This document shows positions 3-16,318 of a stretch of DNA of 16,351 nucleotides, piece by piece (the first letter of the stretch is position 1; every line of letters begins with the position of its first letter). The translations under genes and the position numbers were made by a program. The stretch is from Nitrospinota bacterium (GTDB lineage Bacteria > Nitrospinota > Nitrospinia > UBA9942): the NCBI GenBank assembly GCA_016207035.1, contig JACQQJ010000140.1, positions 1 through 16,351 on the forward strand. The letters run 5' to 3'. The notes under the pieces are model-generated. The model was not told the origin of the DNA. It searched no databases and saw only the letters and a program-made list of their open reading frames with translations.

Positions 3-80
<78 letters not shown>

Positions 81-206: not shown

Positions 207-1619
207 TTAAATATCAAAATAGAGGGCAAATTCATATGGATGGGGTCTTAGCCTCATCTGATTCACCTCTTTATCCCTTTTATATTCAAGCCACATATCA
301 ATGGCATCCTGGGTAAAGACATCACCTTTTAGCAGAAAGTCCGGATCCTTTTCTAATGCCTCAAGGGAATCTTCCAGTGAACCAGGAAGGGATGGGACAT
401 TTTTCAACTCTTCAGGTCCAAGTGCATATATATCCTTATCCAGAGGCTCACCTGGGTCAATCTTATTCTGTATACCATCAAGACCTGCCATGAGCATTGC
501 TGCAAATGCAAGATAACCATTACAGGATGGATCAGGGAATCTGACCTCAACCCTCTTCGCCTTCGGGCTTGGTGAATACATCGGCACCCTGACACTTGCA
601 CTCCTGTTTCTGCTTGAATATGCGAGATTGACAGGTGCCTCAAATCCCGGAACTAATCTTTTGTATGAATTGGTTGTAGGTGCTACGATAGCTGCAAGGG
701 CATGGGCATGTTTGAGTATACCACCAACATAGTATAGTGCCAGTTCACTTAAGCCCCCGTAAGAATTTCCTGCAAATAATGGTTTTCCTCCCTTCCATAG
801 GCTCTGATGGGTATGCATACCTGAGCCATTATCGTTCCATATAGGCTTCGGCATGAATGTAACAGTCTTATTATTCCTCCTTGCCACATTTTTACAGATA
901 TATTTATACCACATCAGATTATCAGCACATTTTGTAAGAGGTGCAAACCTCATATCTATCTCGCACTGACCTGCGGTGGCAACCTCATGATGCTGACATT
1001 CAATTGGTATCCCAACCCCCATCATGGTTAATACCATCTCCGTCCTTATATCCATGAGGCTGTCAGTAGGTGGTACTGGGAAATACCCTTCCTTATACCT
1101 TGGTTTATAGCCGAGATTTGGGTTCTCCTCTTTACCTGAGTTCCATTTCCCCTCTTTAGAATCAATAAAGTAATAGCTGCACTGCTCTTTAGAATCATAT
1201 CTTATGTCATCAAATATAAAAAACTCTGCTTCAGGTCCCATATAAGATGTATCTGCTATTCCTGTGGACTTAAGATATGCCTCAGACTTCTGGGCAATGT
1301 ATCTCGGGTCCCTGCTGTATCTCTCCTTTGTTATTGGGTCGACCACATTGGATATCATGCTCAGGGTAGGCTCCTTTGTAAATGGGTCCATAACTGCTGT
1401 AGCCGGGTCAGGAATGAGGAGCATATCACTGGCATGTATAGGCTGCCATCCCCTGATTGATGAACCGTCAAATCCAAATCCATCTTCAAATGAGCTTTCT
1501 TCCAATTCTGTCATTGGAAAAGAGGTATGCTGCCACATTCCTGGAAAATCCATAAACTTTAAATCAAGAATCTTAGCCTTATTCTTTTTTGCAAAATCTA
1601 AAACCTCTTTCGGTGTCAT
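207..1619 (-). CDS. glnA: Glutamine synthetase type I (GSI-beta; adenylylation-loop Tyr appears conserved)
   Basis: The 470-aa ORF has typical GSI motifs ([17 protein letters not shown]). The segment [11 protein letters not shown] resembles the E. coli adenylylation loop DKNLYDLPPEE. An RBS GGGAGGA sits 5 nt upstream of the ATG. Confidence 0.95.
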
Positions 1620-1636: not shown

Positions 1637-1674
1637 AACTTTCAACTTTTAACTTTTAACTTTCAACTTTTTTT
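1637..1674. repeat. Tandem heptamer repeat (AACTTTY)x5 abutting the glnA SD
   Basis: The units are aactttc aactttt aactttt aactttc aacttttttt. On the minus strand this is (AAAGTTR)n, immediately 5' of the glnA RBS. Confidence 0.7.
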
Positions 1675-2027: not shown

Positions 2028-3443
2028 CTATATTATTCCTCTTGTAGTAGTTGTACCAACAAAATCAGGATACGCCTGCATCCCATGCTCTCCAATATCA
2101 AGTCCATTCCGCTCCTCATCCTCATCAACCCTTAAACCCATAGTAGACTTTATAACAAGCCACGCTATAGTACTCACTATCACCACATAGATCCCTACAG
2201 TTACTATACCTGTAATCTGAGAGATGAGCTGGGCTACACCTCCACCATATAAAAGCCCGGTTACGCCGCCTGTAACATTTGCTGCAAAAAGCCCTAAGGA
2301 TAATGTCCCCCATGTACCATTTACAAGGTGAACAGAGAGGGCACCTACAGGGTCGTCCACATGTATTTTATCAAAAAATAGAACAGCATAAACAACCAGT
2401 ATGCCAGCTACTATCCCTATAATAAATGATCCAAAAGGTGTTACCCAGTTACATGGAGCTGTAATAGCCACAAGTCCCGCAAGGATGCCATTTATGACCA
2501 TACTCAAATCTGGTTTACCGAGGGCAAGATAAGATGCATAGGTAGCTGCCACCCCTCCAACAGCGCCGGCTAAACAGGTATTTATAGTAACCCTTGAAAT
2601 GGCATCAGGGTCTGCAGCCATCGTACTTCCAGGATTAAAACCAAACCAACCAAACCACAGGACAAACATACCGAGTGTTGCCATACCCATGTCATGACCT
2701 GGTATTGCATTAACTTTGCCGTCATGAGTATATTTTCCTATCCTTGGTCCAAGCAGATAGGCACCTACTAACGCTGCCCATCCACCAATGCTGTGAACAA
2801 CTGTAGAGCCTGCAAAATCGAGAAAAGGGGTCTTCAAGGTAGCGAGCCATCCACCACCCCATATCCAGTGTCCTGCAACAGGGTATATAAATACAGCCAT
2901 AACTCCTGAAAAGACAAAGAAAGAGAAGTATTTTATCCTCTCTGCAACTGCACCTGATACAATCGTAGCCGCTGTTCCTGCGAAGACTAATTGAAAGATG
3001 AATTTAGCATAGAGAGGGACTCCTGTCCAGTTCAATGAGGGAAAGATTCCATTATACGCATCTCCCATAGCAGGGCTATTGTCAGCCCCATAGAGCATCC
3101 ATCCTGTCGCCCCGAAGAAGGGATTACTATTACTAAACATGATACCAAATCCTACAAACCAGTAGAAGATGGTAGTGACACAGAAGACTATAACATTTTT
3201 TGAAAGTATATTTACTGCATTTTTGGAACGGCACAAACCCGACTCTACCATAGCGAATCCAAGGTTCATAAAAAATACAAGGAAAGCAGTAAAAAGTACC
3301 CAGACCGTATCTGCTGCAAATTTAGCATCAAAGGATGGTGATGCAGAAGCTTGAGGGGCTTCTTCTGCAAAAACCAAGCCTGCAGTAAAAATTACCAGTG
3401 CTGATAAAATAAGCACAATACTAAAATACTTTTTTAAAAACAT
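2028..3443 (-). CDS. amt: Ammonium transporter (Amt/MEP family) with cleavable signal peptide
   Basis: The 471-aa ORF has a multi-TM Amt signature (region D..WVL.TAFLVFFM..GFA.VE.G, about 11 TM helices). The N-terminal signal MFLKKYFSIVLILSALVIFTAGLVFA is present. An RBS GGAGGGA lies upstream. Confidence 0.92.
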   Translation of the reverse strand: MFLKKYFSIVLILSALVIFTAGLVFAEEAPQASASPSFDAKFAADTVWVLFTAFLVFFMNLGFAMVESGLCRSKNAVNILSKNVIVFCVTTIFYWFVGFGIMFSNSNPFFGATGWMLYGADNSPAMGDAYNGIFPSLNWTGVPLYAKFIFQLVFAGTAATIVSGAVAERIKYFSFFVFSGVMAVFIYPVAGHWIWGGGWLATLKTPFLDFAGSTVVHSIGGWAALVGAYLLGPRIGKYTHDGKVNAIPGHDMGMATLGMFVLWFGWFGFNPGSTMAADPDAISRVTINTCLAGAVGGVAATYASYLALGKPDLSMVINGILAGLVAITAPCNWVTPFGSFIIGIVAGILVVYAVLFFDKIHVDDPVGALSVHLVNGTWGTLSLGLFAANVTGGVTGLLYGGGVAQLISQITGIVTVGIYVVIVSTIAWLVIKSTMGLRVDEDEERNGLDIGEHGMQAYPDFVGTTTTRGII

Positions 3444-3701: not shown

Positions 3702-5114
3702 TTACACCTCAATAGAGCTACGAGGTAGGTGATACGCATGTGTTCCGTGTTCCTCTACATCCAGTCCTTCTAATTCTTCTTCCGGAGAAACTCGCAAATT
3801 CCCCATCATTTTTAACGCGCCGAAAAGAATCAGCCCCATTCCAAAGGCCCAAACAAAGCATGTTACAACGCCAGTTGCCTGAGCAATTAAAAGCTTTGTG
3901 CCACCGCCAAATAAAAGTCCGTTACCTGTTGTGTTTGGCATGAACATATCCTGAGCAAAAAGCCCGAGACAAAGTGTTCCAAAAGCGCCGCACATTCCAT
4001 GCACTGGAATGGCTCCAACCGGGTCATCAATATGCAGCTTGTCTAACAAAAGAACGCCAAGGACAACCACGATGCCTGCAGCGCCACCAATAATAACAGA
4101 GGAAAGCGGGCTTACATATGCGCAGGGCGCCGTGATGGCGACAAGACCGGCAAGTGCACCGTTTAAAGACATGCCGATATCCCATCTGCCAAACATCCTT
4201 TTAGAAAAAAGCAGTGCTGTGATAACACCGGCGGCGGCTGCCAGATTGGTTGTGACGGCTATATGCGCGATGTTATCCACAGTTCCTGACATTGTAGAGC
4301 CGGGATTAAACCCGAACCAGCCGAGCCACAGAATAAACACGCCAAGCGTTGCCATGGGGAGATTATGCCCCAGAATGACGTTGACGCTTCCATCTTTGTT
4401 ATATTTCCCTATGCGAGGTCCTAACATTATAGAACCTGCGAGTGCTACCCACCCGCCTACGGAATGTACGACGGTAGAGCCTGCAAAATCCCACATTCCC
4501 ATTTTTGCAAGCCAGCCTGCTCCCCATACCCAGTGCCCGAAAATCGGATAAATAATCAAGCTGATGAAAATGCTGTACCACAGATACGCTGAAAACTTTG
4601 TGCGCTCCGCCATGGCGCCGGACACAATCGTTGCCGACGTTGCCGCAAACACAAGCTGAAACATATACTTTGCGTAGATGGACACATTTGCCCACGCTAT
4701 GGGTTCAAAACTCTTTATCGGGTCACCTGCAAGAAAAAAACCTGTCGTGCCGATAAAATCGTTTCCCGTTCCAAACATCAAGCCGAATCCTATTGCCCAG
4801 TACGCAATGGAGCCAAAGCAAAAATCAAGCAGGTTTTTCATCATAATGTTGTTTGTATTTTTCGCCTGTGTAAAACCTCCTTCCACATACGCAAACCCTG
4901 CCTGCATCCAGAACACAAGAAATGCCGTTACCAGCACCCACACCATGTCTATGGCGCGCGCATGAGCGTCTAATTTTGTGGATAAATCAGTAATGGTTGG
5001 CACTGCGTCCTCCGCAAGGGACAATAGCGGCTTGCATAAAAATGCTAAAAGCATAACCACAACCCACCCCGCAAAGAATTTCCATCTCTTTCTTTGATAC
5101 TTTTTTAAAACCAT
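3702..5114 (-). CDS. amt: Ammonium transporter (Amt/MEP family), paralog of downstream amt
   Basis: The ORF track extends to 5192, but the start is set at MVLKKYQRKRW (5114). This is based on the RBS AGGGAGGG and a leader about 40 nt long that is near-identical to the amt1 start region (ccatattattatccctccct). Length is 471 aa, the same as amt1. A strong Amt signature is present. Confidence 0.9.
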   Translation of the reverse strand: MVLKKYQRKRWKFFAGWVVVMLLAFLCKPLLSLAEDAVPTITDLSTKLDAHARAIDMVWVLVTAFLVFWMQAGFAYVEGGFTQAKNTNNIMMKNLLDFCFGSIAYWAIGFGLMFGTGNDFIGTTGFFLAGDPIKSFEPIAWANVSIYAKYMFQLVFAATSATIVSGAMAERTKFSAYLWYSIFISLIIYPIFGHWVWGAGWLAKMGMWDFAGSTVVHSVGGWVALAGSIMLGPRIGKYNKDGSVNVILGHNLPMATLGVFILWLGWFGFNPGSTMSGTVDNIAHIAVTTNLAAAAGVITALLFSKRMFGRWDIGMSLNGALAGLVAITAPCAYVSPLSSVIIGGAAGIVVVLGVLLLDKLHIDDPVGAIPVHGMCGAFGTLCLGLFAQDMFMPNTTGNGLLFGGGTKLLIAQATGVVTCFVWAFGMGLILFGALKMMGNLRVSPEEELEGLDVEEHGTHAYHLPRSSIEV

Positions 5115-5181
5115 ATTATTATCCCTCCCTTTAATCCCCATATATTTCCCCCTTAATGCAAAAATGGGGGATTGTAAGGGA

Positions 5182-5535
<354 letters not shown>

Positions 5536-5590: not shown

Positions 5591-6718
5591 TTAAAAATAG
5601 AAGAACACATTGACTGCCACCGTATCCTGTTCTTTTACATCTGCAGTCTTTTCTTTTTTATCAAATACAGGCTTATCAGATACATCATGACGATATTCAG
5701 GTCTTATAACGAGATACTTCTTTATAGCAAACTCAGGTGTAACCGTAATCTCCCACATATCCTGTTTTGTCAATGTCCTCGCACCATCATCATCCTTAAA
5801 TATCTCTCCCCTGAGATTGAGAGAAATCATATCATTTGCAACATATCTGATATAACCTGCAAGTCCTGACCATTTGCTATCACTATTCGGGCTCGATACA
5901 TTATTAGGATCCTTCTGTTCACTCCCATAGACATAGTCAAAAGCAAGGGTAAGACGCTCCAATAAAGTAAATGACAGATTTGCATCAAAGAGGCTTCTCA
6001 TATTGCTATCGTTGTTGGTCTGTTCTGGTCCCCACATGTATTTAATATTCAGCATAGTGTTTGGTATAGGTGTCAATGCCAGATGTGTGCAAATGGTCTT
6101 CCCCCTGTTATTATCCACTACATTGTCCCATCCATTTAAGACTTCTGCTGTTAGAGAAGCCATATCATTGAATTTATACACCCCTCTTAATCCGGTATGT
6201 GTGAATGGAATGGAATAGAAAAATAGAAGAGAGCGAGAGTAGTTGTAATTCCATGCATCGTATCCCTCAATTACCTCTGCCCCCATCTCTGTGATGTATT
6301 TTCCTAAATCAAGGGCAAGTCCAGTCCCTACAGGTAATACATATCGCACATAAGCCTGTTGGATATCAAAATCATCATCAGCAGCCTGTGTTACACCGGG
6401 CCAGGAAGAGCGTATAGCTTTAGGGATTGTATACCCATACATGATATCTGTCCTATAGCCAATATCCCCTGGCTCTATAGCCTCCTTTTGAAAAACCAGC
6501 TCTGCAACATCTACATTAAAACTATTTGCATTCTCATTAAAGGGTCTAAAATTTATCTTTCTTGAATCGGGGTCATTAAAATTATAGTTATATGCTGTCG
6601 AGACAAACCCATTTACCTTAATATCCTTTAAAAGATCTCCTGCATCTACAGCATAAGAAATGCTGCAAAATGAAATAACTAAAACAAAAGCTACTGTGAA
6701 AATTTTTAAACCTTTCAT
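5591..6718 (-). CDS. Outer-membrane beta-barrel (porin-like) protein encoded with glnK-amt
   Basis: A signal peptide MKGLKIFTVAFVLVISFCSISYA is present. Composition is beta-rich with alternating aromatics. The C-terminus ...VNVFFYF is a typical OMP signature. The start is set at 6718 (RBS AGGAGGG); the ORF track gives the alternative 6742. Confidence 0.7.
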   Translation of the reverse strand: MKGLKIFTVAFVLVISFCSISYAVDAGDLLKDIKVNGFVSTAYNYNFNDPDSRKINFRPFNENANSFNVDVAELVFQKEAIEPGDIGYRTDIMYGYTIPKAIRSSWPGVTQAADDDFDIQQAYVRYVLPVGTGLALDLGKYITEMGAEVIEGYDAWNYNYSRSLLFFYSIPFTHTGLRGVYKFNDMASLTAEVLNGWDNVVDNNRGKTICTHLALTPIPNTMLNIKYMWGPEQTNNDSNMRSLFDANLSFTLLERLTLAFDYVYGSEQKDPNNVSSPNSDSKWSGLAGYIRYVANDMISLNLRGEIFKDDDGARTLTKQDMWEITVTPEFAIKKYLVIRPEYRHDVSDKPVFDKKEKTADVKEQDTVAVNVFFYF

Positions 6719-6734
6719 TAATTTTACCCTCCTT

Positions 6735-6914
6735 TTAATCAACTAAGTTTTTAAGCCTCTTTATTTTGTCTATTACAACCTTTGATTTTGGCAGACTATC
6801 CCCCCTTTCCCATCTGGAGACTGTGGTTACTGTGACGCCAATCCTTCTTGCAAATTCATCCTGCGTCATTCCCAAGCTCTCCCTTATATTTTTTATTTCT
6901 TCTCTTTTGAACAT
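6735..6914 (-). CDS. XRE-family helix-turn-helix transcriptional regulator (small, about 59 aa)
   Basis: HTH_3 motif MTQDEFARRIGVTVTTVSRWERG. The ORF track extends to 6941, but a sigma-54-like promoter overlaps those codons, so the start is set at MFKREE (6914). Confidence 0.65.
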   Translation of the reverse strand: MFKREEIKNIRESLGMTQDEFARRIGVTVTTVSRWERGDSLPKSKVVIDKIKRLKNLVD

Positions 6915-6929
6915 CTGTATATACATGTG

Positions 6930-6945
6930 AGCAAAGGGCATGCCA
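6930..6945 (-). promoter_or_regulatory. Sigma-54 (-24/-12) promoter TGGCAT-N5-TTGCT heading the XRE-OMP-glnK-amt-amt(-glnA) gene string
   Basis: The minus strand reads TGGCATgccctTTGCT, with GG and GC at the canonical spacing. An ATG lies 16 nt downstream of the -12 element, implying a very short leader or a leaderless transcript. Confidence 0.5.
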
Positions 6946-7179: not shown

Positions 7180-8439
7180 CTATTCCTTTGTAAGCTCCTT
7201 TAATTGATTTAAAAGAAAAATGTCAAGGACTGGATTCCCTGATGTATGACTGCTGCCTCCTACAATAGCTGATGGAACTTTAACCTCTTTAAGTGCATTT
7301 GCCACCCCTATAAGGGTATCTCTCTTCATCTGCAGTCTGAGTTCAAGGGAATTGTCTGCCTTTGCCAGTGCCTGCCTCCACTCAGCCTCTTTTAGAGAGG
7401 CAATCCTCTTTCCTTCTGCTTCTTCCATAATCGCCTGTTTCTCAAGTCTTGCCTTCTCCAAAAATAGTTGTGCAGTCTCTTTCTCCCTTTGGGCATTGAT
7501 TAATGCAACTGTCTTCTCCTTCTCTGCCTCTATCGTTGACACCTCTGCCTCTTTTTCAGCACGTATCCTTGCCTCTAATCTCTGTGGTTCTTCTCTTGCC
7601 TTTGTCTCTGCCTGAAATTTCTCCTCCTCAGCCTTTGCAGTAATAGCATCCTGTTTTGCCTTTTCTGCTGCAATAATTGCATTATTCCTCTGCTGTTCTA
7701 ATAATCTCTGTTCATCAAACTTTGATTGGGACTGTTTATCATATTCAATCTTCTTTAAGGTAAAATTCCTGATAGCAATCCCGAATTTATCTGTAATTCC
7801 AGGCATTCTTACCGGTAACAAGATACCATTTTCTGTTTTTGTAAGAGGGATTAACATAATATTCCCATCTGTTACCCTTTTATCATAAGTAATCAGACCG
7901 TTCTGAAGACTATCAAATATATCCCTGATAAAATTCCCCCTCTCACGAATTGAGTCTGTGCTGCTATATGAGGCAGCCACGAGGGTCATCACAGTATTAA
8001 TATAGTTCCTCAATATCCTCTGCTGAAGATTATCTTCGTTTTGTGCCTCCTGGATGATCAATCTTATTTTTTCAGGGTCAGATGGCATTGTATACCGTAT
8101 CACCCCATTTATATTTGCAATGCCATTGTCCTTAAATACAACACTGATTGAATCAACAATCTTCCTCTCCTCTTTTTTTACCTTCTCTACATGATCTTCA
8201 AAAGTAACAGCCCCTGATACCCTGAACTTAGTTACTTCGCTGAACAACCCTTTCCAGTAAAGACCTGGATTTGTGATAATCTTTAATTCCCCACTTGGCC
8301 ACTTCTGAACTACAAGATAGTGACCGGTAGAGTTTTTTCCAAAGAGAGAATAGATTATCAACACCACCAGGATAGCTGGTATTAATTTTTTAAAGTTAAC
8401 CCTTTTCCATACAGGCTCTCTTTCTAATTCTGTATTCAT
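7180..8439 (-). CDS. SPFH/Band-7 (flotillin-like) membrane protein with C-terminal coiled-coil
   Basis: An N-terminal TM segment (LIPAILVVLIIYSLF) is followed by an SPFH-like core. A long E/A/K-rich coiled-coil tail (EKAKQDAITAKAEEEKFQAETKAREE...) is typical of flotillin/YqiK-like proteins. The start is at MNTELERE (8439) with RBS AGGAGGAGA. Confidence 0.7.
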   Translation of the reverse strand: MNTELEREPVWKRVNFKKLIPAILVVLIIYSLFGKNSTGHYLVVQKWPSGELKIITNPGLYWKGLFSEVTKFRVSGAVTFEDHVEKVKKEERKIVDSISVVFKDNGIANINGVIRYTMPSDPEKIRLIIQEAQNEDNLQQRILRNYINTVMTLVAASYSSTDSIRERGNFIRDIFDSLQNGLITYDKRVTDGNIMLIPLTKTENGILLPVRMPGITDKFGIAIRNFTLKKIEYDKQSQSKFDEQRLLEQQRNNAIIAAEKAKQDAITAKAEEEKFQAETKAREEPQRLEARIRAEKEAEVSTIEAEKEKTVALINAQREKETAQLFLEKARLEKQAIMEEAEGKRIASLKEAEWRQALAKADNSLELRLQMKRDTLIGVANALKEVKVPSAIVGGSSHTSGNPVLDIFLLNQLKELTKE

Positions 8440-8451
8440 ATCTCCTCCTTC

Positions 8452-8524
8452 AAAAAATAGCAATGAGCAACAAACAACAAGCAATGAGCAATGAGTAATG
8501 AGTAATAAGTTTTTTCCTCATTGC
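8452..8524 (-). terminator. Terminator-like hairpin built from tandem heptamers (GCAATGAG/TAATGAG) after the FGE-like gene
   Basis: On the minus strand, gcaatgagg ... (ctcattg)n ... gctcattgct is followed by attttttg. It lies 3' of the FGE-like stop and immediately 5' of the SPFH RBS. Confidence 0.4.
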
Positions 8525-8541: not shown

Positions 8542-9465
8542 TCACTGTTTTTTGCTCATAGTTCGTTTAACGCACCTAAATCCAATGTCTATTCTGCATG
8601 CATTTGGCTTTTCTGTGTGGCGAAAAGAGACCCGCAGGGAATTTTTATCACTTTTCCACGACCCGCCTCGGATTACCTTTAGATGGTTATTAAGCCGTGG
8701 TCTTGGATTATTTTCCTTTCCATCCATATAAAGCTCGTATCCATCTGAAGTCCACTCCCACACATTTCCTGCCATATCATTAATTCCAAAACCATTGATA
8801 CTGTAGCTTCCGACCGGCATTATCCCCCCTTTGTAAGGGGGGGAATGGGAGGCGGGTAAGCCTCTCCAGTTAGATAGGTGGGTTTCAAAATTATTACCCC
8901 ATACATACCGCATACCTTCATAACCACCACGCGCAGCATATTCCCATTGTCTCTCAGTAGGGAGAGATTTCTGAGCCCACCTGGCATAGGCATCTGCGGC
9001 ATACCAGCTTACATATATTACAGGGTAGTTCTCCTTACCTTTTGGAAATTCAGAGCTATTCCAGTCCATGAGATAGTTTTCATCTGCCTCATCGAATTTT
9101 GGATTACCTTTCTGCCAGTGGGGATTGGCAAGTATAAATCTCTGATACTGAAGATAGATAACTTCATACTGATCCATAGAAAAGTCATCCAGCTCCACTC
9201 CGTGGAGAGGTCTCTCATCAAACTCGCCATCTTCACTCCCCATAGTAAATACCCCTGCTGGAATTTCAACCATTTCTTCAGAAAATTCCCCGTGCCCAGC
9301 CCCTTCTTCAAAGGGGGATGTTTGGAGATTCGCAGGGATTACCGAGACATCCTCAACCTGTTCATTCCAGTAAAATGTGATAAGTAAGGAGCAGGAGGCA
9401 AGGAGCAAGAACCCCAAAAATTTTATTCTGAATTCTGTATTCTGAATTCTGTCTCCTGTATTCAT
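8542..9465 (-). CDS. FGE/SUMF1-sulfatase-fold lipoprotein lacking the catalytic Cys pair (NirV-like)
   Basis: Hallmarks of the FGE fold are present (GNVWEWTSD, RGGSW, GFRCV). There is no CxxxxC after RGGS, so it is probably not a true formylglycine-generating enzyme. The N-terminus MNTGDRIQNTEFRIKFLGFLLLASC has a lipobox LASC. Its ATG overlaps the stop of the upstream octahaem gene (ATGA). Confidence 0.75.
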   Translation of the reverse strand: MNTGDRIQNTEFRIKFLGFLLLASCSLLITFYWNEQVEDVSVIPANLQTSPFEEGAGHGEFSEEMVEIPAGVFTMGSEDGEFDERPLHGVELDDFSMDQYEVIYLQYQRFILANPHWQKGNPKFDEADENYLMDWNSSEFPKGKENYPVIYVSWYAADAYARWAQKSLPTERQWEYAARGGYEGMRYVWGNNFETHLSNWRGLPASHSPPYKGGIMPVGSYSINGFGINDMAGNVWEWTSDGYELYMDGKENNPRPRLNNHLKVIRGGSWKSDKNSLRVSFRHTEKPNACRIDIGFRCVKRTMSKKQ

Positions 9466-10808
9466 TTCCCCTTATCCTTCCTCTCCCTTATCTCATTTAT
9501 CATTCTCTTCAATTCCACTCTCCCCCTTGCCAGCTCATAAAAACCGTGCCACTGGGTATAATCAGGACCCATCATGGATGCCCCCATCCTTGCCCTCCTC
9601 CCCTCATGGTGCCAGTATTCAAAGAATTTAAATTCCAAATCCTCATCAAATTTATCCTTTGTTAAATACCCCAGCTTATAAAGCTCGTCCATCTCCTTTT
9701 TTATAGGTTTATAGTATTCTTCATTATAAAGAGAGATCACATTATCAAACTGCTGGTAATATCCCTCCACCCAATTCTTTGAATGACATGATAGGCAGAC
9801 CATCTGCATCCTCTCCCTTTTGTTTTTCCAGTCCTTCCTCTTTTCAGAGAGGGGCCATTTAAGCTCCCATGAGAGTCTTTCACTCACATTATGAGATGGT
9901 TCAAGCATCCCTATTCCTGACATGTGACAGGTAGCACAGGTTGGTGCCCTGAAATATTTTGTATCCCATACAGAAGGTGCTACCTCCATATTCCATTTAT
10001 GTTTTTCTGAACTGTATATCACCCCATGTTTAGATTCCATATATATCTCATACTGTGGGTGGTCAGGACCCATATGGCATGTCCCGCATGCCTCCGGTGT
10101 CCTCGCCTCTGTAATTGAAAAGAGGTGTCGTGTATGACAGGCAGTGCATGACCCTTTGCTCCCATCGGGATTGACACGGCCTATTCCATTATTGGGCCAT
10201 GTATCTTTATCAAAAATTCCATTAGATTCGCTTCGCTCACTACGAGTTTTAACCTTTATAACTGACCCATGACACTTCTCACACCCCATAACTGCAGCCG
10301 CCTTTCCTTCTATTTTATAGGCAAGTGTATCATCACCTGCCCTGTCACCTTCAAGGACTTGTCCTGACCCTGAACTTGATTCAGGGGTTTCAGGATTTTT
10401 GATGAAAGAGACAGCCTTTGAATGCATAGATTCATTAAATTCCATAACCTGTTTTGGGTGGCATCTGGAGCAGTCCTTAGGACTTACAATAGCAGAGATA
10501 ACCTCACCTTCATGTTTTCTCGCATCTGCATCAGTAGTATCAGCCTGATGACAGTCTATACAGGTAACCTGTGCCTTTGCATGATTGCTCTTCTCCCAGT
10601 CATTGACAATTCCAGGGGACAATTGGCTATGACAGAGAATACATCTCTTTGCCACATCTATCTCCCCCTTTGTCTTCTTTATTGCAAGAGCATCGGAGGA
10701 AAAAAGCAGAACGTAGAATACAGAATACAAAATACAGAATAATAATATTATGCACCATCTCTTCTGACTTCTGACTTCTGACTTCTGACTTCTGTATTCT
10801 GTATTCAT
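9462..10808 (-). CDS. Octahaem cytochrome c, HAO (hydroxylamine oxidoreductase)-family-like
   Basis: There are eight CXXCH motifs (CILCH, CIDCH, CSRCH, CEKCH, CTACH, CGTCH, CATCH, CLSCH) in about 410 mature residues. A signal peptide ...FSSDALA|IKK is present. The start is taken at ATG 10808 (MNTEYRSQK...), 15 nt inside the ORF-track GTG. Its ATG overlaps the stop of the NrfH-like gene (ATGA). Confidence 0.8.
   Translation of the reverse strand: MNTEYRSQKSEVRSQKRWCIILLFCILYSVFYVLLFSSDALAIKKTKGEIDVAKRCILCHSQLSPGIVNDWEKSNHAKAQVTCIDCHQADTTDADARKHEGEVISAIVSPKDCSRCHPKQVMEFNESMHSKAVSFIKNPETPESSSGSGQVLEGDRAGDDTLAYKIEGKAAAVMGCEKCHGSVIKVKTRSERSESNGIFDKDTWPNNGIGRVNPDGSKGSCTACHTRHLFSITEARTPEACGTCHMGPDHPQYEIYMESKHGVIYSSEKHKWNMEVAPSVWDTKYFRAPTCATCHMSGIGMLEPSHNVSERLSWELKWPLSEKRKDWKNKRERMQMVCLSCHSKNWVEGYYQQFDNVISLYNEEYYKPIKKEMDELYKLGYLTKDKFDEDLEFKFFEYWHHEGRRARMGASMMGPDYTQWHGFYELARGRVELKRMINEIRERKDKGK
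10716..10803. repeat. Heptanucleotide tandem repeats in the first 14 codons of the octahaem gene, plus an inverted copy in the signal-peptide coding region
   Basis: Plus strand 10762-10803 is (tctgact)x4 then (tctgtat)x2. On the coding strand this encodes MNTEYRSQKSEVRSQKR. Plus strand 10716-10740 (gaatacagaatacaaaatacagaat) is its reverse complement and encodes the signal-peptide h-region. The two can form a hairpin of at least 13 bp spanning the start codon. Confidence 0.85.
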
Positions 10809-11353
10809 CAACTTTCCCTCCACATATGAACCAGGTTTTGATGGCAGTTCAGACAGCTTTTTACCTCTCCCCTTTTAAATGCCTTGTGCCCTAAGAGTCC
10901 GCCCCTTTGAAGCTCTGATGGAAAGAGATTTTTATGGCATTTGAGACATGCCTCAGACCTGATATTTTTTGCCGCAGACACTTTCCACTTTTGATGGTCA
11001 AAGTCTTCAGGTCTTAATAGGAAGTGCATAATAGTATCCTTCATACCCTGTCTAACCTTTGCATACCACTTATTCATTTCCCCAGGCGGCAGATGGCAGT
11101 CAGCGCAATCTGCCACTACCCCTCTGCTGCTGTCATAATGACTTGATTTAAGATACTGCTGATATGGCTCAATCATTTCATGGCATTGTGCCGAGCAGAA
11201 TTTATTTGTAGATGAATAATGAAATGAAATCGTTGTGAGACCATAAAATATTATCAACCCTGTCGTAGTCAGGATGACGATAGCACTTATCTGTACCCTG
11301 CTCGGGGAAGGTCTCTTAAAGCCCTCATCTATGTCTGCTCTGTTTTTATCCAT
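10808..11353 (-). CDS. NapC/NirT/NrfH-family membrane-anchored tetrahaem cytochrome c (quinol dehydrogenase)
   Basis: The 181-aa protein has an N-terminal TM helix (VQISAIVILTTTGLIIFYGLTTI). There are four haem motifs. The first is non-canonical, CSAQCH (CX3CH); the others are CADCH, CLKCH, CLNCH. Confidence 0.8.
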   Translation of the reverse strand: MDKNRADIDEGFKRPSPSRVQISAIVILTTTGLIIFYGLTTISFHYSSTNKFCSAQCHEMIEPYQQYLKSSHYDSSRGVVADCADCHLPPGEMNKWYAKVRQGMKDTIMHFLLRPEDFDHQKWKVSAAKNIRSEACLKCHKNLFPSELQRGGLLGHKAFKRGEVKSCLNCHQNLVHMWRES

Positions 11354-11375: not shown

Positions 11376-11440
11376 GAGCACCAGTCACCAGTGCACCAGA
11401 AAAATATTTCTATTACTGGTGTTCTGGTGTTATGGTGCTC
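11376..11440 (-). terminator. Hairpin of octamer repeats NNCACCAG; likely terminator of amt3 and a repeat-family member
   Basis: The left arm gagcaccag-tcaccag-tgcaccag pairs with the right arm ctggtgtt-ctggtgtt-atggtgctc, separated by a 16-nt loop. It directly abuts the amt3 stop and is followed on the minus strand by T-rich sequence. Confidence 0.5.
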
Positions 11441-12790
11441 TTATTTTATATTTGTTATCTGGAAATCAGGGTATGCCGCTGCCGTATGCTCTGAATAATC
11501 AAGCCCGAGATACTCCTCCTCTTCTGATACCCTGAGCCCAATTGCCTTCTTGATTAAACTGAAAATCCCATAGGAAACGAAAAATGACCAGAGAAAGGCT
11601 ATAATACTGCCTAATAGTTGAATGCCTATATTCCCAATATTAAACATCTCACCTGTTTTAAATATACCAAGTGCTAAAGTCCCCCAAACACCACAGACCC
11701 CGTGAACAGAAATTGCTCCCACAGGGTCATCTATCCTTAATCTTTCAAACTGAAGAACAGAGAAAACGACAATAACCCCTGCAATTATACCTATAATTAC
11801 AGCCCATAATGGCTCTACATGGGCACAACCGGCAGTAATAGCAACAAGGCCTGAGAGGGCACCATTGAGGGTCATTCCCACATCAGGCTTGTTAAATTTA
11901 AACCATGCTGTAATCATACCTGATATTGCTGCTGCTGAACCTGATAAGGTGGTATTTATCATAATCTGGGCAATTTTACTCCCTCCCTCAAGGGTATTGC
12001 CGGCATTAAAGCCATACCATCCAAACCACAGGATGAGTGTTCCGAGGGCTGCGAGCGGTAGGTTATGTCCGAGTATGGGGTTAATTGTTCCGTCCTTTCT
12101 GAATTTTCCGCTCCTTGGACCAAGGACAATAGTCCCTGCCAGCCCTGCCCATCCGCCAATGGCATGTATTACCGTTGAACCTGCAAAGTCATGAAAACCA
12201 AGTTTCTCAAGCCATCCATCCCCATGATAAAAGCTCCCCCAGACCCAGCTCCCAAAGACTGGATATATGAATGATGACATAGCTGCTGTAAACATGAGTG
12301 AAGCAGAGAATCTTGTCCTCTCTGCCATAGCCCCTGATACTATGGCTGCTGTTGAAGATACAAAGACCAACTGATACATCCAGAAGGCAAAGAGCCATGG
12401 GTCACGGGACTCAGCATAATCATGCAAAAAAAAGCCTTCTATGCCAAAGAGTCCATTGGAAATCCCGAACATAATGCCAAAACCTACTGCCCAGAAGACA
12501 ATTGAACTAACTGCAAAATCCATCATATTCTTCATAATGGCATTAACTGCACTCTTTGCCCGTGTGAAGCCAATCTCCACCATGATAAACCCTGCCTTCA
12601 TGAAGAAGACAAGGATCGTGGCAATACATATCCAGACAATATCCAGATTTACCTGAACATCCTCTGATGTGATAATCCTCTCTGCTGAGGAATCATTCGC
12701 ATTGATAAAATTCCAGAAAAGAGACAGGATTAAAAATTTAAAAATTATTTTCATCCTCTTTTGTGAACCAAAGGCTTGTGAGAGTTTCAT
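11441..12790 (-). CDS. amt: Ammonium transporter (Amt/MEP family), third copy
   Basis: The 449-aa ORF has an Amt signature (D..W.......FFM..GF..VE.GF.R.K, multiple TM helices). A signal peptide is present. An alternative start is M13 at 12754. Confidence 0.88.
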   Translation of the reverse strand: MKLSQAFGSQKRMKIIFKFLILSLFWNFINANDSSAERIITSEDVQVNLDIVWICIATILVFFMKAGFIMVEIGFTRAKSAVNAIMKNMMDFAVSSIVFWAVGFGIMFGISNGLFGIEGFFLHDYAESRDPWLFAFWMYQLVFVSSTAAIVSGAMAERTRFSASLMFTAAMSSFIYPVFGSWVWGSFYHGDGWLEKLGFHDFAGSTVIHAIGGWAGLAGTIVLGPRSGKFRKDGTINPILGHNLPLAALGTLILWFGWYGFNAGNTLEGGSKIAQIMINTTLSGSAAAISGMITAWFKFNKPDVGMTLNGALSGLVAITAGCAHVEPLWAVIIGIIAGVIVVFSVLQFERLRIDDPVGAISVHGVCGVWGTLALGIFKTGEMFNIGNIGIQLLGSIIAFLWSFFVSYGIFSLIKKAIGLRVSEEEEYLGLDYSEHTAAAYPDFQITNIK

Positions 12791-12964: not shown

Positions 12965-13147
12965 TCATCTCCTGTAGTCCTGCCACTGGGTAGTATCAGG
13001 ATTAGTAGTCTTTAGCCAATGAGAAAAGTCAGGACGCCAGTATATTGCAAGATATATAAGACCCCAGATGATAAATATACCCCATATCAGCTTTATCCAG
13101 AGAGGGAGAGGATTATCCTGTTGTCCTATTTTTGTCTTTTCTTCCAT
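12965..13147 (-). CDS. Small single-TM membrane protein (60 aa), possibly CcoQ-like oxidase accessory subunit
   Basis: One hydrophobic helix (LWIKLIWGIFIIWGLIYLAIYW). It is adjacent to the preceding ORF with no gap, at the end of the cco cluster. No recognisable motif; assigned by position only. Confidence 0.4.
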   Translation of the reverse strand: MEEKTKIGQQDNPLPLWIKLIWGIFIIWGLIYLAIYWRPDFSHWLKTTNPDTTQWQDYRR

Positions 13148-13447
13148 TTAAGTCCCCCTCTCTATCTCTCGCATCTTTTCTTCCATCTCAAGGATTCTAT
13201 ACTTTGCCTTTTCCATATCTTTAAAATCTCCCTTCAGAAAACTCCAGAGAAAAAGAAAAAAGAAACCGATAGCAATGAGGAGATAGGTAATAACCTGAAT
13301 TACTGCAAAGCCTGTTACCTCACCCATGGGAACTGTTCTTGCAATCTCAAAAAATTTGTATACAAATGTCAGTGATGCAAAGGTAACCCCTGAAATTACC
13401 CATGTCCATAAAATAAAAACAGCCCACTCCTTTTTATCCTTCTTCAT
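13148..13447 (-). CDS. Small two-TM membrane protein (about 99 aa), unknown function, in cco cluster
   Basis: The start is at MKKDKKEW (13447), 4 nt after the ccoO stop, with an SD AAGAGGA 11 nt upstream. There are two hydrophobic helices and a charged C-terminal tail. Confidence 0.45.
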   Translation of the reverse strand: MKKDKKEWAVFILWTWVISGVTFASLTFVYKFFEIARTVPMGEVTGFAVIQVITYLLIAIGFFFLFLWSFLKGDFKDMEKAKYRILEMEEKMREIERGT

Positions 13448-13451
13448 ATTT

Positions 13452-14048
13452 TTATTTCCTCTTCCAGTTGCCAAGCCACTGCACATAGGTGACTACAGAG
13501 AGCCCTTTTTTATTTGGTCTTCCATTTTCGTCAAAGAACCATAGGTAGGAAGGCATTACTGAATCAGGCTGAACTGAATGAGGATCATAGAAATGAGCCA
13601 CATGCCAGTCATTGCTGTGCACACCTGCCTCCCGTATGAGGTCAGGGCCCACCCTCCTCGTACCGAATAACTGCGGCATCTGTAGTTCATTCTGATACTC
13701 AGAGGCAGTTGAAATATCTCCATACCTGACTTCTTCATTCGCTACAGGTCTCACATACTGGGAATGACAGTGCCAGCATGCCTCTGCAATGTAAGTATCT
13801 CTCCCCAATTTAAGTGCCTCAGCATAGGTAACTGGAGAGGGGTCTCCAAATGCCTTCTTAAACTCAACAGGGTAGTCTTCTGATAGTTGATAGAACTCAG
13901 AATTAATATCCTCTTTCACCAGCTCATCTATAGTCTTCATCGGTATATCTTTTAAGAAGATTATTGGACCCAGCATCTGGAAGATAAATCCGAGGAGAAA
14001 AAATCCAACCCCTGCGATGATAAATATAAAACTAAACCTCTCTTTCAT
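13452..14048 (-). CDS. ccoO: cbb3-type cytochrome c oxidase subunit II (CcoO/FixO), monohaem
   Basis: The 198-aa protein has an N-terminal TM helix, a single CWHCH haem site, and the CcoO-like region GPDLIREAGVHSNDWHVAHFYDPHSVQPDSVMPSY. Confidence 0.8.
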   Translation of the reverse strand: MKERFSFIFIIAGVGFFLLGFIFQMLGPIIFLKDIPMKTIDELVKEDINSEFYQLSEDYPVEFKKAFGDPSPVTYAEALKLGRDTYIAEACWHCHSQYVRPVANEEVRYGDISTASEYQNELQMPQLFGTRRVGPDLIREAGVHSNDWHVAHFYDPHSVQPDSVMPSYLWFFDENGRPNKKGLSVVTYVQWLGNWKRK

Positions 14049-14118
14049 GGTTTTCTTTAGTTCAGGAAATTATAAAAATTTACCACAGAAGCACGGAGAC
14101 ACAGAGAAAGACAGATAG

Positions 14119-14200
14119 GACACCAGATCACCAGAGCACCAGTAAAAAAACTGGTGACTGGTGCGACCCATCCACTGGATGGGTGCCCCGGACTGGTGAC
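14119..14200. repeat. NNCACCAG octamer-repeat hairpin element inserted between ccoN and ccoO
   Basis: The sequence is acaccag-atcaccag-agcaccag-t-aaaaaaa-ctggtga-ctggtgc, then hairpin acccatcca-ctg-gatgggt, then ggactggtgac. It belongs to the same family as 11376-11440. Confidence 0.6.
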
Positions 14201-14223
14201 CTTTTCTTTATAACCACTGTGCC

Positions 14224-15591
14224 TCAGTGTATCAGTGGTTTAATCAGGTTTTTGTTCTTCGCCGTCATAGAGAGATTATAAATTAAGGATATTATACCAC
14301 CGCTAATCATCAGCCCTGATAGAGTCCTTACAAACCAGAAGGGGACCGAGAACCGTATAGAATCCATAAATGGGTTAAGTCCCCACCATATAAAACCCTG
14401 CACAACACCTCCGATAGTAAGATCTATAAACATAAGGATGATTCCGAGTGTACAAAGCCAGTAAGCCCAGCCATTCAGGCTATGAGAATACCACTCTTTT
14501 CCTGTAAGTCTTGGCCAGAGTTCTGTAATTATACCCATGAGCCAGAAACTGAAGACACCGAACATTACCAGATGGGCATGAGCCACTACCCAGTCTGTAA
14601 AGTGGATGAGCTTCTGAGCTGTAAGGGTTGACTGTATAGCACACTGAAAACATGTGACCCAGTAAAATACCATTCCAGTATAAAACCATCTTATTGGATA
14701 GTTTGTCCTTAGATAGTCACCACTCCCTTTTAGTGTCATAATAAAATTTGCAAGGACACTGGTTACAACAACTTCTATGGCAATACTTGCCACCACTGCA
14801 CTGTATTGAACATGCATGGGGACAGGCGACCACATGAAATGATGGATCCCCTGCATGGGGTAGAAGAATGCAAGCCCCCAGAAACCCATTAGACTCAAGG
14901 TATGGCTCCAGATAGGTTTCTTGATTATAGTTGGGACGAAAAAATACATCAGCCCCCAGCCCAAAGGTGTAATAAGGAGTCCGACAAAGTCATGTATATA
15001 GTTTCCAGTAATTGCCGCACCTGCTGCCCCGGGGACAAAAAATTGCGGTATATAATTTCCCATGATATAGACCATAATAATCCAGACTAAAGCCCCTATG
15101 AAATACCACAATGAAACATAGAGGGGTGCATCCTTGCTGGACTTGAGTATTGGTGGGATAAAATTTGTAGCTAAGAGAAACAGTCCTAAAGTGATGAAGG
15201 GGTCAACGAATATCGGGGTCTCTCCAAATTCAATTGCCTGGGCATATCCACCAAGAATTCCTACTGCGGTAGCAAGGACAAGAATTTGAAGGAACCAGAA
15301 TATCAACCAGCTTAATTGCCTGCTTAAAACAGGATAGCCTGAGGTCCTCGGCACTGCCCAGTACATCCCTGATAAAAGACCATTGAGAAGCCATCCATAC
15401 GCAACGGCATTTGTATGGACCATCCTGACCCTGCCTGGAGAGAAAAATTCAATTCCTTGTAACGGATAATGGTTGAGAAACTGCAGGGAATATAAAAGCC
15501 CGGCAGTAATTGACATGATAAGAAAAATTAGCGCCGCAATAATATGTGCAGTGACGAGATTATAGTTTACAGGATTCTGTCTTTCATTCAT
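14224..15591 (-). CDS. ccoN: cbb3-type cytochrome c oxidase subunit I (CcoN), haem-copper oxidase C-family
   Basis: The 455-aa polytopic protein carries CuB and haem ligand motifs (YIHDF; FFYPMQGIHHF with Tyr six residues before HH, as in cbb3 cross-link Tyr; AHAHLVMFG). Its start overlaps the stop of the upstream cytochrome c gene by 8 nt. Confidence 0.8.
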   Translation of the reverse strand: MNERQNPVNYNLVTAHIIAALIFLIMSITAGLLYSLQFLNHYPLQGIEFFSPGRVRMVHTNAVAYGWLLNGLLSGMYWAVPRTSGYPVLSRQLSWLIFWFLQILVLATAVGILGGYAQAIEFGETPIFVDPFITLGLFLLATNFIPPILKSSKDAPLYVSLWYFIGALVWIIMVYIMGNYIPQFFVPGAAGAAITGNYIHDFVGLLITPLGWGLMYFFVPTIIKKPIWSHTLSLMGFWGLAFFYPMQGIHHFMWSPVPMHVQYSAVVASIAIEVVVTSVLANFIMTLKGSGDYLRTNYPIRWFYTGMVFYWVTCFQCAIQSTLTAQKLIHFTDWVVAHAHLVMFGVFSFWLMGIITELWPRLTGKEWYSHSLNGWAYWLCTLGIILMFIDLTIGGVVQGFIWWGLNPFMDSIRFSVPFWFVRTLSGLMISGGIISLIYNLSMTAKNKNLIKPLIH

Positions 15592-16318
15592 TTTTTCTCA
15601 TCGGTTTTAAACTTAAGAGAAATGATATTAAGTGCCACCTTTCTTCCTCAGCTATATCTGAGAATACAGGCATCGGTGTGCCTTCAATACCAGTAGTCAG
15701 TATTCTGAATATATCCCTTGGAGTTGAACCGCCTCTGTATATTCCCCTTTTAAAATTTCTTGGTTTGATTTTATTCCCCCACATATCTTCCAGTTCCTCT
15801 GCAGAAGAACCCCTCCCATCTCCAGTCTCACCATGACATAAATCACAGCCATTATCCTTATAAGCCTCCGCTCCCCTTTTAATAGATTCTGGAGAGTCTA
15901 TATAGAGAGGGACTGGAGGGATGTTGATTGATGCAGTAAGCCTCTCTTTGATCCATCTCGCTGAAAATGTCTTGATATATTCTATTACAGCCATCCTCTC
16001 TCGCTCAGGCACTAATACATAACTTGGCATGGAACTTCCAGGGAGTCCTTTCGTAATGGTGTTCATTAAATCTTCATCTGTAGGTAATGCACCCTGTGGA
16101 GTAGATTTAAATTTAAAGACACCTGTAGTAAAATCTCTCGGTTTAACAACTAAAAGTGTTGCTGCCTTACCTTTACCATCCCCTTTCTCACCATGACACC
16201 CTATACAGTATTTCTTATATACCTCATAACCTCTGTTTATTAATTCATCTGCCATTGCAAAGACAGGAATAAAAAATATACATGCAAAAAGAATTAATTG
16301 AGTTGTCCCTTTTTTCAT
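15584..16318 (-). CDS. Dihaem c-type cytochrome (class I, c4/CcoP-like soluble domain pair) with signal peptide
   Basis: The 244-aa protein has two CXXCH sites (CIGCH, CDLCH), each followed by a Met-containing segment (SSMP, GTPMP). An N-terminal signal MKKGTTQLILFACIFFIPVFAMA is present. It is translationally coupled to ccoN. Confidence 0.75.
   Translation of the reverse strand: MKKGTTQLILFACIFFIPVFAMADELINRGYEVYKKYCIGCHGEKGDGKGKAATLLVVKPRDFTTGVFKFKSTPQGALPTDEDLMNTITKGLPGSSMPSYVLVPERERMAVIEYIKTFSARWIKERLTASINIPPVPLYIDSPESIKRGAEAYKDNGCDLCHGETGDGRGSSAEELEDMWGNKIKPRNFKRGIYRGGSTPRDIFRILTTGIEGTPMPVFSDIAEEERWHLISFLLSLKPMRKNE

Follow-up and report, generated by a model that had tools for sequence, protein, structure and literature searches.

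A conserved five-gene unit places a cysteine-less FGE-fold protein and an SPFH protein beside an HAO-family octahaem cytochrome in a Nitrospinota bacterium

Why should a gene for a protein with the formylglycine-generating enzyme (FGE) fold, but without the catalytic cysteines of that enzyme, directly follow a gene for an octahaem cytochrome of the hydroxylamine oxidoreductase (HAO) family? The question is raised by contig JACQQJ010000140.1 of a Nitrospinota bacterium (assembly GCA_016207035.1), which we analysed over its whole length of 16,351 bp and refer to as the window. A preliminary description of this DNA had picked out a module of three consecutive minus-strand genes, for a NapC/NrfH-type cytochrome, an octahaem cytochrome and an FGE-fold protein, and all three were assigned to the claimed families (PF03264, PF13447 and PF03781). 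The module was drawn too small, however, since an ammonium transporter gene (amt) upstream and an SPFH/Band_7 gene downstream are always conserved with these three. The conserved unit is amt, nrfH, occ, fge and band7 (SPFH), in that order, and it has the following parts in the window:

11441-12790, minus strand: amt, ammonium transporter, gene 1 of the five-gene unit (PF00909, 2.7e-117; TIGR00836, 2.8e-125)
10808-11353, minus strand: NapC/NirT/NrfH-type cytochrome, 181 aa (PF03264, 9.5e-31)
10806-10810, minus strand: nrfH/octahaem junction, TGATG, 1-nt overlap, with a GGAGG Shine-Dalgarno sequence 8 nt upstream
9462-10808 (or to 10823), minus strand: octahaem cytochrome, 448 aa, or 453 aa from 10823 (PF13447, 4.9e-35)
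9462-9465, minus strand: octahaem/FGE junction, ATGA stop/start overlap of 4 nt
8542-9465, minus strand: FGE-sulfatase-domain protein, 307 aa (PF03781, 1.8e-59)
7180-8439, minus strand: SPFH/Band_7 protein, last gene of the five-gene unit (PF01145, 1.9e-16)

Every gene on the contig is on the minus strand. An ATGA overlap had been described at both junctions of the three-gene module. It is present between the octahaem and FGE genes, but the nrfH/octahaem junction reads AGT TGA TG AAT, with the stop codon at 10810-10808 and the ATG at 10808-10806. The alternative GTG start of the octahaem gene, at 10823, would give a 16-nt overlap with the nrfH-like gene.

Is the adjacency of the FGE and octahaem genes kept in other genomes? 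The FGE-fold protein has a clearly delimited set of orthologues, P0002-P0028, at 63-78% identity to it (388-541 bits); the next match, P0029, drops to 268 bits. In every orthologue context that could be read (L001, L003, L004, L005, L086-L090, L095, L177 and L178), the genes stand in the order amt, NapC/NirT, octahaem, FGE, Band_7. These contexts include a metagenome-assembled genome (MAG) named Nitrospirae (L086), a MAG named Planctomycetes (L177 and L178), and a marine variant (L087-L089) that occurs in 70 blocks of the collection, TARA included. L095 has the full unit although its FGE-fold protein is just 45% identical. The SPFH gene follows the FGE gene in every locus that is long enough to show it. 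The 4-nt overlap between the octahaem and FGE genes is also found in L001, L003, L004 and L087-L089, and in the other loci the two genes are +3 to +41 nt apart. When we scanned metagenomes with the FGE alignment, we obtained 80 loci, which were analysed by searches with open reading frames (ORFs) and hidden Markov models (HMMs). Among those with an FGE-fold protein of at least 46% identity (L096-L112), the unit is present wherever the flank suffices, and no octahaem, NrfH, SPFH or amt gene is near any of the 63 loci with an FGE-fold protein of at most 45% identity.

Approached from the octahaem side, the linkage turns out to be confined to one clade. A scan of genomes with the octahaem alignment listed 80 loci of 42-50% identity from many phyla, none of them belonging to the FGE-linked clade. 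None of these 80 has an FGE-domain ORF within 8 kb of the octahaem gene, and about 22 of them have an adjacent NrfH-like gene. In a neighbour-joining tree of 98 octahaem proteins, all of the FGE/SPFH-linked proteins (17 distinct sequences) fall in a single clade. Every locus of that clade, to which L177 and L178 also belong, has the FGE and SPFH genes together with the octahaem gene, across Nitrospinota-, Nitrospirae- and Planctomycetes-named MAGs and widespread marine contigs. The sister locus, L092, reads PII-amt-amt-nrfH-occ-glnA and has neither an FGE nor an SPFH gene. The pairing of FGE and octahaem genes is therefore real and far beyond chance, and it is a trait of one clade. The expectation that it would be conserved in related genomes held, and the lack of conservation that would have made the adjacency incidental did not turn up. 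We rejected a general pairing across HAO-family octahaem cytochromes, given its absence from all 80 of the other-clade loci listed and from L092. Twelve positions were specific to the FGE-linked octahaem proteins, but nearly all of these residues are shared with the unlinked sister.

What does the octahaem protein do? It contains exactly eight CXXCH motifs and a Sec-type signal peptide that ends in ALA, followed by I, and it matches PF13447 with 121.5 bits (cut-off 21.9). Its matches in the PDB are 4qo5 (1.7e-47; 3e-73 with a profile), 4fas/1fgj (about 2e-26) and 6h5l (3e-23), and its solved relatives are, in order, 4qo5, the HAO of Nitrosomonas europaea, Kuenenia kustc0458, HDH and kustc1061. 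The placement in the HAO family with eight haem motifs was thus upheld, and no search put the protein outside that family; an exact look-up of its sequence gave no match. The closest of these relatives, 4qo5, is the octahaem nitrite reductase of Ignicoccus hospitalis (IhOCC), which groups with HAO and HDH and does not have the P460 haem (PMC9250108). The active-site Asp-His pair that follows the catalytic haem motif is kept: 'CGTCHMGPDHP' aligns with 'CATCHSGVDHN' of N. europaea, and D249 and H250 are invariant in 16 homologues. With the octahaem nitrite reductase (ONR) of the Thioalkalivibrio type there is a marginal local profile match (3sxq, E = 3.6e-4, 22.6 bits). Because the homology to 2ot4/3sxq does not extend across the protein, identity with this type (TvNiR, of the NrfA-like clade) is ruled out. 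The NCBIfam equivalog for HDH gives 90 bits, against a cut-off of 900. Compared with P0124, which is 82% identical, the window protein has two low-complexity insertions of its own, NPETPESSSGSGQ (residues ~136-148) and TRSERSES (~186-193).

The tyrosine that in oxidative HAO is cross-linked to the catalytic haem of the neighbouring subunit bears on whether such a protein would oxidise or reduce. We aligned the octahaem proteins with MAFFT L-INS-i to three C-terminal HAO fragments from ammonia-oxidising bacteria that carry Tyr467 ('NPGGWTY467TEGWGP', with the numbering confirmed by counting from residue 408 of the alignment). Tyr467 of N. europaea HAO aligns with Q419 of the window protein, a variable position (Q, H or W). 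The nearby Y417 is Phe in four FGE-linked proteins (P0126, P0128, P0130 and P0137) and also in P0158 and P0214. On this alignment, in which the loop may slip by two residues, the octahaem protein has no conserved cross-linking Tyr, in agreement with the earlier suggestion that it is a reductive-type relative of HAO. We accordingly rejected the oxidative HAO/HDH (P460) class, in which that Tyr is conserved. PMC8042395 treats HAO proteins without the Tyr as reductases, and gives an account of Haase 2017 in which four Tyr-less epsilon-Hao enzymes reduced both nitrite and hydroxylamine in vitro, their oxidation of hydroxylamine being negligible. As the window enzyme does not have a conserved haem-Tyr cross-link, it should act reductively, like IhOCC and epsilon-Hao. 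We presume that it is of the IhOCC, epsilon-Hao or Nitrospira 'ONR' type, that is, a putative nitrite or hydroxylamine reductase.

The upstream cytochrome is a plausible electron donor. It matches PF03264 with 107.3 bits (cut-off 24.1) and has an N-terminal transmembrane helix (about residues 24-42) whose N-flank is positive, so the description of a membrane-bound cytochrome of the NapC/NrfH family stands. Its haem motifs need a correction, as they are three CXXCH and one CX3CH, with the CX3CH in the usual first position (CSAQCH(EM), CADCH, CLKCH and CLNCH); we assume that haem is attached at the CX3CH motif as well. The TIGR03153 equivalog for NrfH scores 76.9 bits, under its cut-off of 134.2, and the CH-x-M signature (CHEM) is present and conserved in the clade. 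By these signatures the protein at 10808-11353 is NrfH-like rather than a certified NrfH, and it is presumably a quinol dehydrogenase. The CX3CH first motif (11180-11200, residues 52-59) is common to the Nitrospinota orthologues, L111 and the sister locus L092, and occurs in a few unrelated NrfH-like genes (L013, L030 and L033); the canonical CXXCHEM is kept in L086, L087, L090 and L106.

The FGE-fold protein is the more puzzling component. Its membership of the fold is clear (PF03781, 201.9 bits), and both of the catalytic copper-binding cysteines (human C336 and C341, CX4C) are missing, with 'GGSWKSDKN---SLRVSFR' facing human 'GGSYMsHRSYCYRYRC'. The claim of an FGE fold without the catalytic Cys pair is thus confirmed, and a genuine FGE enzyme, which has the fold and the pair, was rejected as its identity. 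No Cys is invariant across the subfamily, and the CX4C pair is found in none of the nearest 120 database relatives. In an AlphaFold model (mean pLDDT 74), an N-terminal helix (4-36) and a disordered linker (35-62) precede the FGE fold. The top Foldseek matches of this model are the human, Streptomyces and Thermomonospora FGEs (the best is human, E = 9e-22, about 30% identity, TM-score about 0.7), followed by pFGE, CalU17, PvdO and PorK; the closest solved relatives by sequence are genuine FGEs too (119 bits). Some residues are invariant within the subfamily but vary in the wider alignment (H88, D241-G-Y-E244-x-Y246 and N259-x-H261-x-K263). The protein had been taken for a lipoprotein, which we reject: the Cys of 'LASC' falls halfway along a hydrophobic helix of 18 residues, is followed by further hydrophobic residues and is absent from many orthologues, and the model shows a single N-terminal helix. 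It is probably anchored by a transmembrane helix, with a periplasmic domain.

The protein had also been called NirV-like, after the product of the gene that accompanies nirK, which encodes the copper nitrite reductase. For comparison we located nirK and nirV on pSymA of Sinorhizobium meliloti (L093) by ORF and HMM search. There, nirK (23750-24880) is followed by nirV (22737-23651), whose product matches PF03781 with 144 bits. The two FGE-fold proteins share the superfamily, the lack of the FGE Cys pair, and a gene position directly after a gene for a periplasmic nitrite reductase (by prediction, in the window), and to this extent the label is apt. They are not orthologues: NirV is 22% identical to the window protein (36 bits), its nearest solved relatives are PvdO and pFGE rather than genuine FGEs, and an ORF and Pfam survey found no nirK in the window. 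Nor does the missing Cys pair point to a special link with NirV, as the pair is missing from all of the nearest 120 relatives; by the sequences compared, its absence is the rule in this large branch of the FGE family. Since NirV also differs in its partner (the copper enzyme NirK, which makes NO, rather than an octahaem cytochrome) and has no SPFH partner, the two associations arose independently.

Other FGE-fold proteins that have lost the catalytic cysteines offer a looser parallel. The proteins pFGE/SUMF2, PvdO and PorK/GldK serve as binding partners, ring scaffolds or auxiliary periplasmic factors, and they are recovered with the window protein's model (Foldseek 1y4j, 3e-17; 5hha, 3e-14; 9mzu, 6e-13). 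In contrast to the window protein, none is tied to multihaem cytochromes, Amt or SPFH proteins, and PorK, instead of being anchored by a transmembrane helix, is a lipoprotein in the ring of type IX secretion.

The two outer genes of the unit are as distinctive as the inner ones. Orthologues of the unit's Amt score 660-870 bits and lie directly upstream of nrfH in every FGE-linked locus, whereas other amt paralogues score just 200-350 bits against it. The last protein matches PF01145 with 61 bits (cut-off 23.6) and has an N-terminal transmembrane helix and a long coiled coil. An AF2 single-sequence model of it (pLDDT 50.6) is confident solely for a 150-residue helix (236-385); the SPFH domain is modelled with low confidence. 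Few sequences belong to the subfamily (E<=1e-30 is reached by 8 of 1.84 billion cluster representatives), its full-length matches fall from 367 bits (55% identity) to 136 bits (34%), and PDB sequence and NCBIfam searches with this protein gave no match. The next-nearest SPFH relative, P0266, lies on a short contig whose flanks tell nothing of its partners. SPFH proteins typically form membrane-attached rings, and their genes are usually paired with NfeD genes. The unit resembles such NfeD-SPFH (stomatin/QmcA-type) pairs in that a gene for a membrane-tethered partner lies immediately upstream of the SPFH/Band_7 gene. It differs in that the FGE-fold gene replaces NfeD, the pair is embedded in an operon of redox-enzyme and transporter genes, and the SPFH protein belongs to a rare, divergent subfamily. 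Contig L087 also carries a canonical NfeD-Band_7-Band_7 set, away from the unit. The N-flank of the transmembrane helix is the more positive one, clearly so for the NrfH-like and FGE-fold proteins; together with the signal peptide of the octahaem protein, these N-terminal helices suggest that the soluble domains would face the periplasm, beside Amt.

The strongest clues to function lie in this dedicated amt, the SPFH gene and the amt/PII/glnA setting, which the earlier functional reading passed over. The remaining features of the window are as follows:

15584-16318, minus strand: dihaem cytochrome c
14224-15591, minus strand: ccoN-like gene
13452-14048, minus strand: ccoO-like gene
13148-13486, minus strand: FixS-like membrane protein
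12965-13147, minus strand: FixP_N-like small ORF, 60 aa
6735-6941, minus strand: HTH_3 regulator (Pfam)
5591-6742, minus strand: BBP2 porin (Pfam)
5182-5520, minus strand: PII (Pfam)
3702-5192, minus strand: amt (Pfam)
2028-3443, minus strand: amt (Pfam)
207-1619, minus strand: glutamine synthetase, glnA (Pfam)
3-80, minus strand: tRNA-Pro (TGG), just downstream of glnA, at the contig end

Downstream of the unit, the order HTH-porin-PII-amt-amt-glnA recurs in L001, L003, L004, L096, L097 and L100. PII, amt and glnA lie beside the unit in Nitrospinota loci, and amt heads the unit in all FGE-linked loci. For assimilation in Nitrospina gracilis, it is NirA that has been described (PMC3578206).

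How does the locus compare with known octahaem systems? The epsilon-Hao/HaoBA systems (Campylobacter, Nautilia and Caminibacter) and IhOCC have the same catalytic core: an HAO-family protein that carries eight CXXCH motifs and does not conserve a cross-linking Tyr, its gene following immediately on one for a NapC/NrfH-type tetrahaem cytochrome. Their characterised members are nitrite reductases, whereas the reductase role of the window protein is predicted from homology, and they are at most ~45% identical to it. An FGE-fold gene, an SPFH gene and a dedicated amt are all missing from them, and their NrfH-type proteins do not share the CX3CH first motif. They are treated as respiratory or ammonifying and do not lie in a PII/glnA locus. 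A closer parallel in context is Nitrospira moscoviensis (L074), whose homologue is 44% identical and of the same Pfam family, in a locus that reads amt-amt-Rieske-cyt b-OCC. This 'ONR' and the two Rieske/cytochrome b genes upstream of it are highly expressed on nitrite as the sole nitrogen source, and it is regarded as an assimilatory nitrite reductase (PMC6606698, PMC12342949). It resembles the window gene in being downstream of amt genes, within a cluster for nitrogen assimilation in a nitrite-oxidiser lineage, with electrons proposed to come from the quinol pool and ammonium as the proposed product. It differs in its electron input (the Rieske/cytochrome b pair, where the window clade has an NrfH-type cytochrome) and in having no FGE-fold or SPFH genes within 8 kb. 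As L074 (6322-9323) is HAO/IhOCC-type by Pfam and by its 44% identity to the window protein, the Nitrospira 'ONR' seems not to be a relative of TvNiR, to which that name is generally taken to refer.

We propose that the locus encodes a periplasm-facing, quinol-driven reductase that forms ammonium for assimilation from nitrite (six electrons) and/or hydroxylamine (two electrons), with FGE and SPFH accessories. The balance of probability tips, if only slightly, in favour of this proposal, in which we infer which way the catalysis runs, what it yields and that it is coupled to Amt, while the five protein families and their synteny are plain from the assignments and gene orders given above. By homology, the NrfH-like tetrahaem cytochrome would oxidise quinol at the inner membrane and hand the electrons to the soluble octahaem enzyme, which would work reductively, as do IhOCC and epsilon-Hao. 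Ammonium formed in the periplasm may then enter through the dedicated Amt and be fixed by glutamine synthetase under PII control, as the conserved context and the Nitrospira precedent suggest. Finally, and most tentatively, the Cys-less FGE-fold and SPFH proteins could be clade-specific obligate accessories, most likely non-catalytic partners or scaffolds that would help to assemble or stabilise an NrfH-octahaem(-Amt) complex.

Several points weigh against this proposal. NrfH/HAO pairs are able, in principle, to run oxidatively. The window protein has a Tyr of its own, Y417, two residues from the aligned cross-link site, and at ~25% identity the loop alignment may be off by that distance. How the SPFH protein is oriented in the membrane can be read clearly from distant orthologues but only ambiguously from the Nitrospinota ones. 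The subfamily-specific invariant His, Asp and Glu residues of the FGE-fold protein (such as H88, E244 and H261) would be compatible with an enzymatic role. NO, rather than ammonium, could be what is formed, as for Kuenenia HAOr (PMC8042395).

The invariant residues of the FGE-fold protein also count in favour of a different account, the main idea of the preliminary description, in which this protein is a maturation enzyme or chaperone of the octahaem cytochrome (through modification or cofactor handling) and the SPFH protein assists assembly near the membrane. The octahaem and FGE genes are always inherited together and lie close to each other (overlapping by 4 nt at one extreme, 41 nt apart at the other), the fold is nearest to genuine FGEs, and NCBIfam NF051459 names the Cys-less FGE-fold protein PvdO a dihydropyoverdine dehydrogenase, so a catalytic role can be assigned to the fold without the Cys pair. 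However, both copper-binding cysteines are gone and no other Cys is invariant; the target motif of FGE ([CS]xPxR; CxPxR-type) was not found in the octahaem, NrfH, Amt or SPFH proteins; the octahaem cytochromes of the sister clade and of the 80 other loci listed do without an FGE-fold gene; and the residues peculiar to the linked octahaem proteins mostly recur in the unlinked sister. We consider maturation unlikely, if worth keeping in mind. In another account, the FGE-fold and SPFH genes would serve Amt or general membrane quality control, and their adjacency to the octahaem gene would be a chance event of the past, fixed in one clade. Membrane transporters and proteases are common targets of SPFH proteins, and as all five genes always travel together, co-occurrence cannot tell which of them is the partner of the FGE and SPFH proteins. 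Gene order speaks otherwise: fge is always right after occ, often overlapping it, and never beside amt, and the order of the unit is kept across MAGs named for three phyla while the flanks differ. We give this account a small chance.

The remaining alternatives concern the reaction itself. The unit could carry out respiratory (dissimilatory) nitrite ammonification, like NrfHA or epsilon-HaoBA, and conserve energy at low oxygen. In ammonifying Epsilonproteobacteria, the epsilon-Hao gene (haoA) reportedly tends to follow a NapC/NrfH-type haoB gene, and the nrfH-occ arrangement matches this; many of the roughly 22 of the 80 listed other-clade loci in which an NrfH-like gene adjoins the octahaem gene come from anaerobes, and IhOCC is listed among dissimilatory reductases (PMC9250108). 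But amt is always gene 1 of the unit; the unit in Nitrospinota loci and the nrfH-occ pair in the sister locus have PII, amt and glnA as neighbours; a cbb3-type oxidase cluster is also in the window; and the Nitrospira homologue is interpreted as assimilatory. A respiratory role is not exclusive of an assimilatory one, and as the explanation of the unit we find it distinctly unlikely. We give still less credence, indeed hardly any, to the idea that the unit detoxifies or scavenges hydroxylamine or NO leaked by ammonia oxidisers, or runs oxidatively as a hydroxylamine:quinone module. NrfH/NapC-type cytochromes do serve the oxidative hydroxylamine module of ammonia oxidisers as well, a hybrid-cluster (Prismane) gene lies near the unit in L090, and, in the same summary of epsilon-Hao, the four Tyr-less enzymes also reduce hydroxylamine in vitro (PMC8042395). 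Hydroxylamine reduction is already part of the assimilatory proposal, so only the oxidative version is a true rival, and it is opposed by the lack of a conserved cross-linking Tyr, the Tyr-less HAO proteins of that summary having negligible oxidation (PMC8042395). The setting, moreover, is one of nitrogen assimilation.

The flanks of the unit hold some further observations. In L090 (2820-4469), the hybrid-cluster gene is accompanied by small desulfoferrodoxin-N-like genes upstream of the unit, a hint of hydroxylamine or NO stress handling. In the Planctomycetes-named MAG, a second Multi-haem_cyto gene (447 aa) follows the unit (L177, 6832-8175; L178, 8281-9624), and in L177 it is followed by a further NapC/NirT-type gene. 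A Tn7-like set (TnsA-like, Mu-transposase C, TniB and TniQ) lies at 820-5488 of L004, just upstream of a response regulator and the amt that precede the unit, and in L001 a DDE transposase and a PhdYeFM/PIN toxin-antitoxin pair come after glnA. In the window, the XRE-type HTH_3 gene and the BBP2/OmpL-like porin (5591-6941) stand between the SPFH and PII genes, as they do in L001, L003, L004 and L005; this pair might be a nitrogen-regulated route of entry across the outer membrane. The cbb3-type oxidase cluster (12965-16318), directly upstream of the unit, is divergent, with all of its genes far under the NCBIfam equivalog cut-offs; L001 has this neighbourhood too, and L003 and L004 do not.

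Short tandem repeats, mainly heptamers (AACTTTC, AGCAATG, ATTCTGA, AGAATAC and CTTCTGA), sit at gene boundaries in the window (1637-1670, 8459-8510, 9424-9463, 10715-10806 and 11378-11441) and extend into the first codons of the octahaem and FGE genes. The repeat at 11378-11441 is built of 7-8-nt units, GCACCAGT and CTGGTGTT, and ATGAATACAG (MNT...) is the start of three consecutive genes. The repeats give rise to N-terminal peptides such as 'SQKSEVRSQK', and the orthologues P0006, P0008 and P0124 have similar N-termini. They are reminiscent of the STRR repeats of cyanobacteria. Scans of the window for promoters and terminators gave nothing above the shuffled expectation, and an Rfam search of it found the tRNA alone.

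The catalytic core of the unit, NrfH with a Tyr-less HAO-type octahaem reductase, is of a kind already known from epsilon-HaoBA, IhOCC and the Nitrospira ONR. What is new is the strict five-gene unit, with its dedicated Amt, its membrane-tethered Cys-less FGE-fold protein and its rare SPFH subfamily. The pairing of FGE and octahaem genes had been thought undescribed, and our full-text literature search agrees: barring two unrelated matches, it found no paper that links formylglycine or FGE with hydroxylamine oxidoreductase or multihaem nitrite reductases. For a multihaem enzyme, the FGE-fold and SPFH genes are new partners. As a speculation, and one that we think has quite a low probability, an SPFH ring with a tethered, dead FGE-fold protein might corral the NrfH/octahaem reductase beside Amt, so that ammonium, NO and hydroxylamine are captured instead of escaping. 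NirK (with NirV) and the octahaem reductase would then each have independently recruited a Cys-less FGE-fold partner, which would point to a general and so far unrecognised role of the fold in nitrite-reductase biology. If this is true, the five-protein assembly gives a first way to study NirV-type proteins by experiment.

In the sea, nitrite is oxidised mainly by Nitrospinota, and the way in which this group and its relatives derive ammonium from nitrite is understood only in part. The unit offers a route that would be independent of NirA, linked to quinol and periplasmic, and it is spread over several phylum-level lineages and widespread ocean contigs. It also makes two questions testable: what Cys-less FGE-fold proteins like NirV do beside nitrite reductases, and which proteins are the clients of bacterial SPFH scaffolds.

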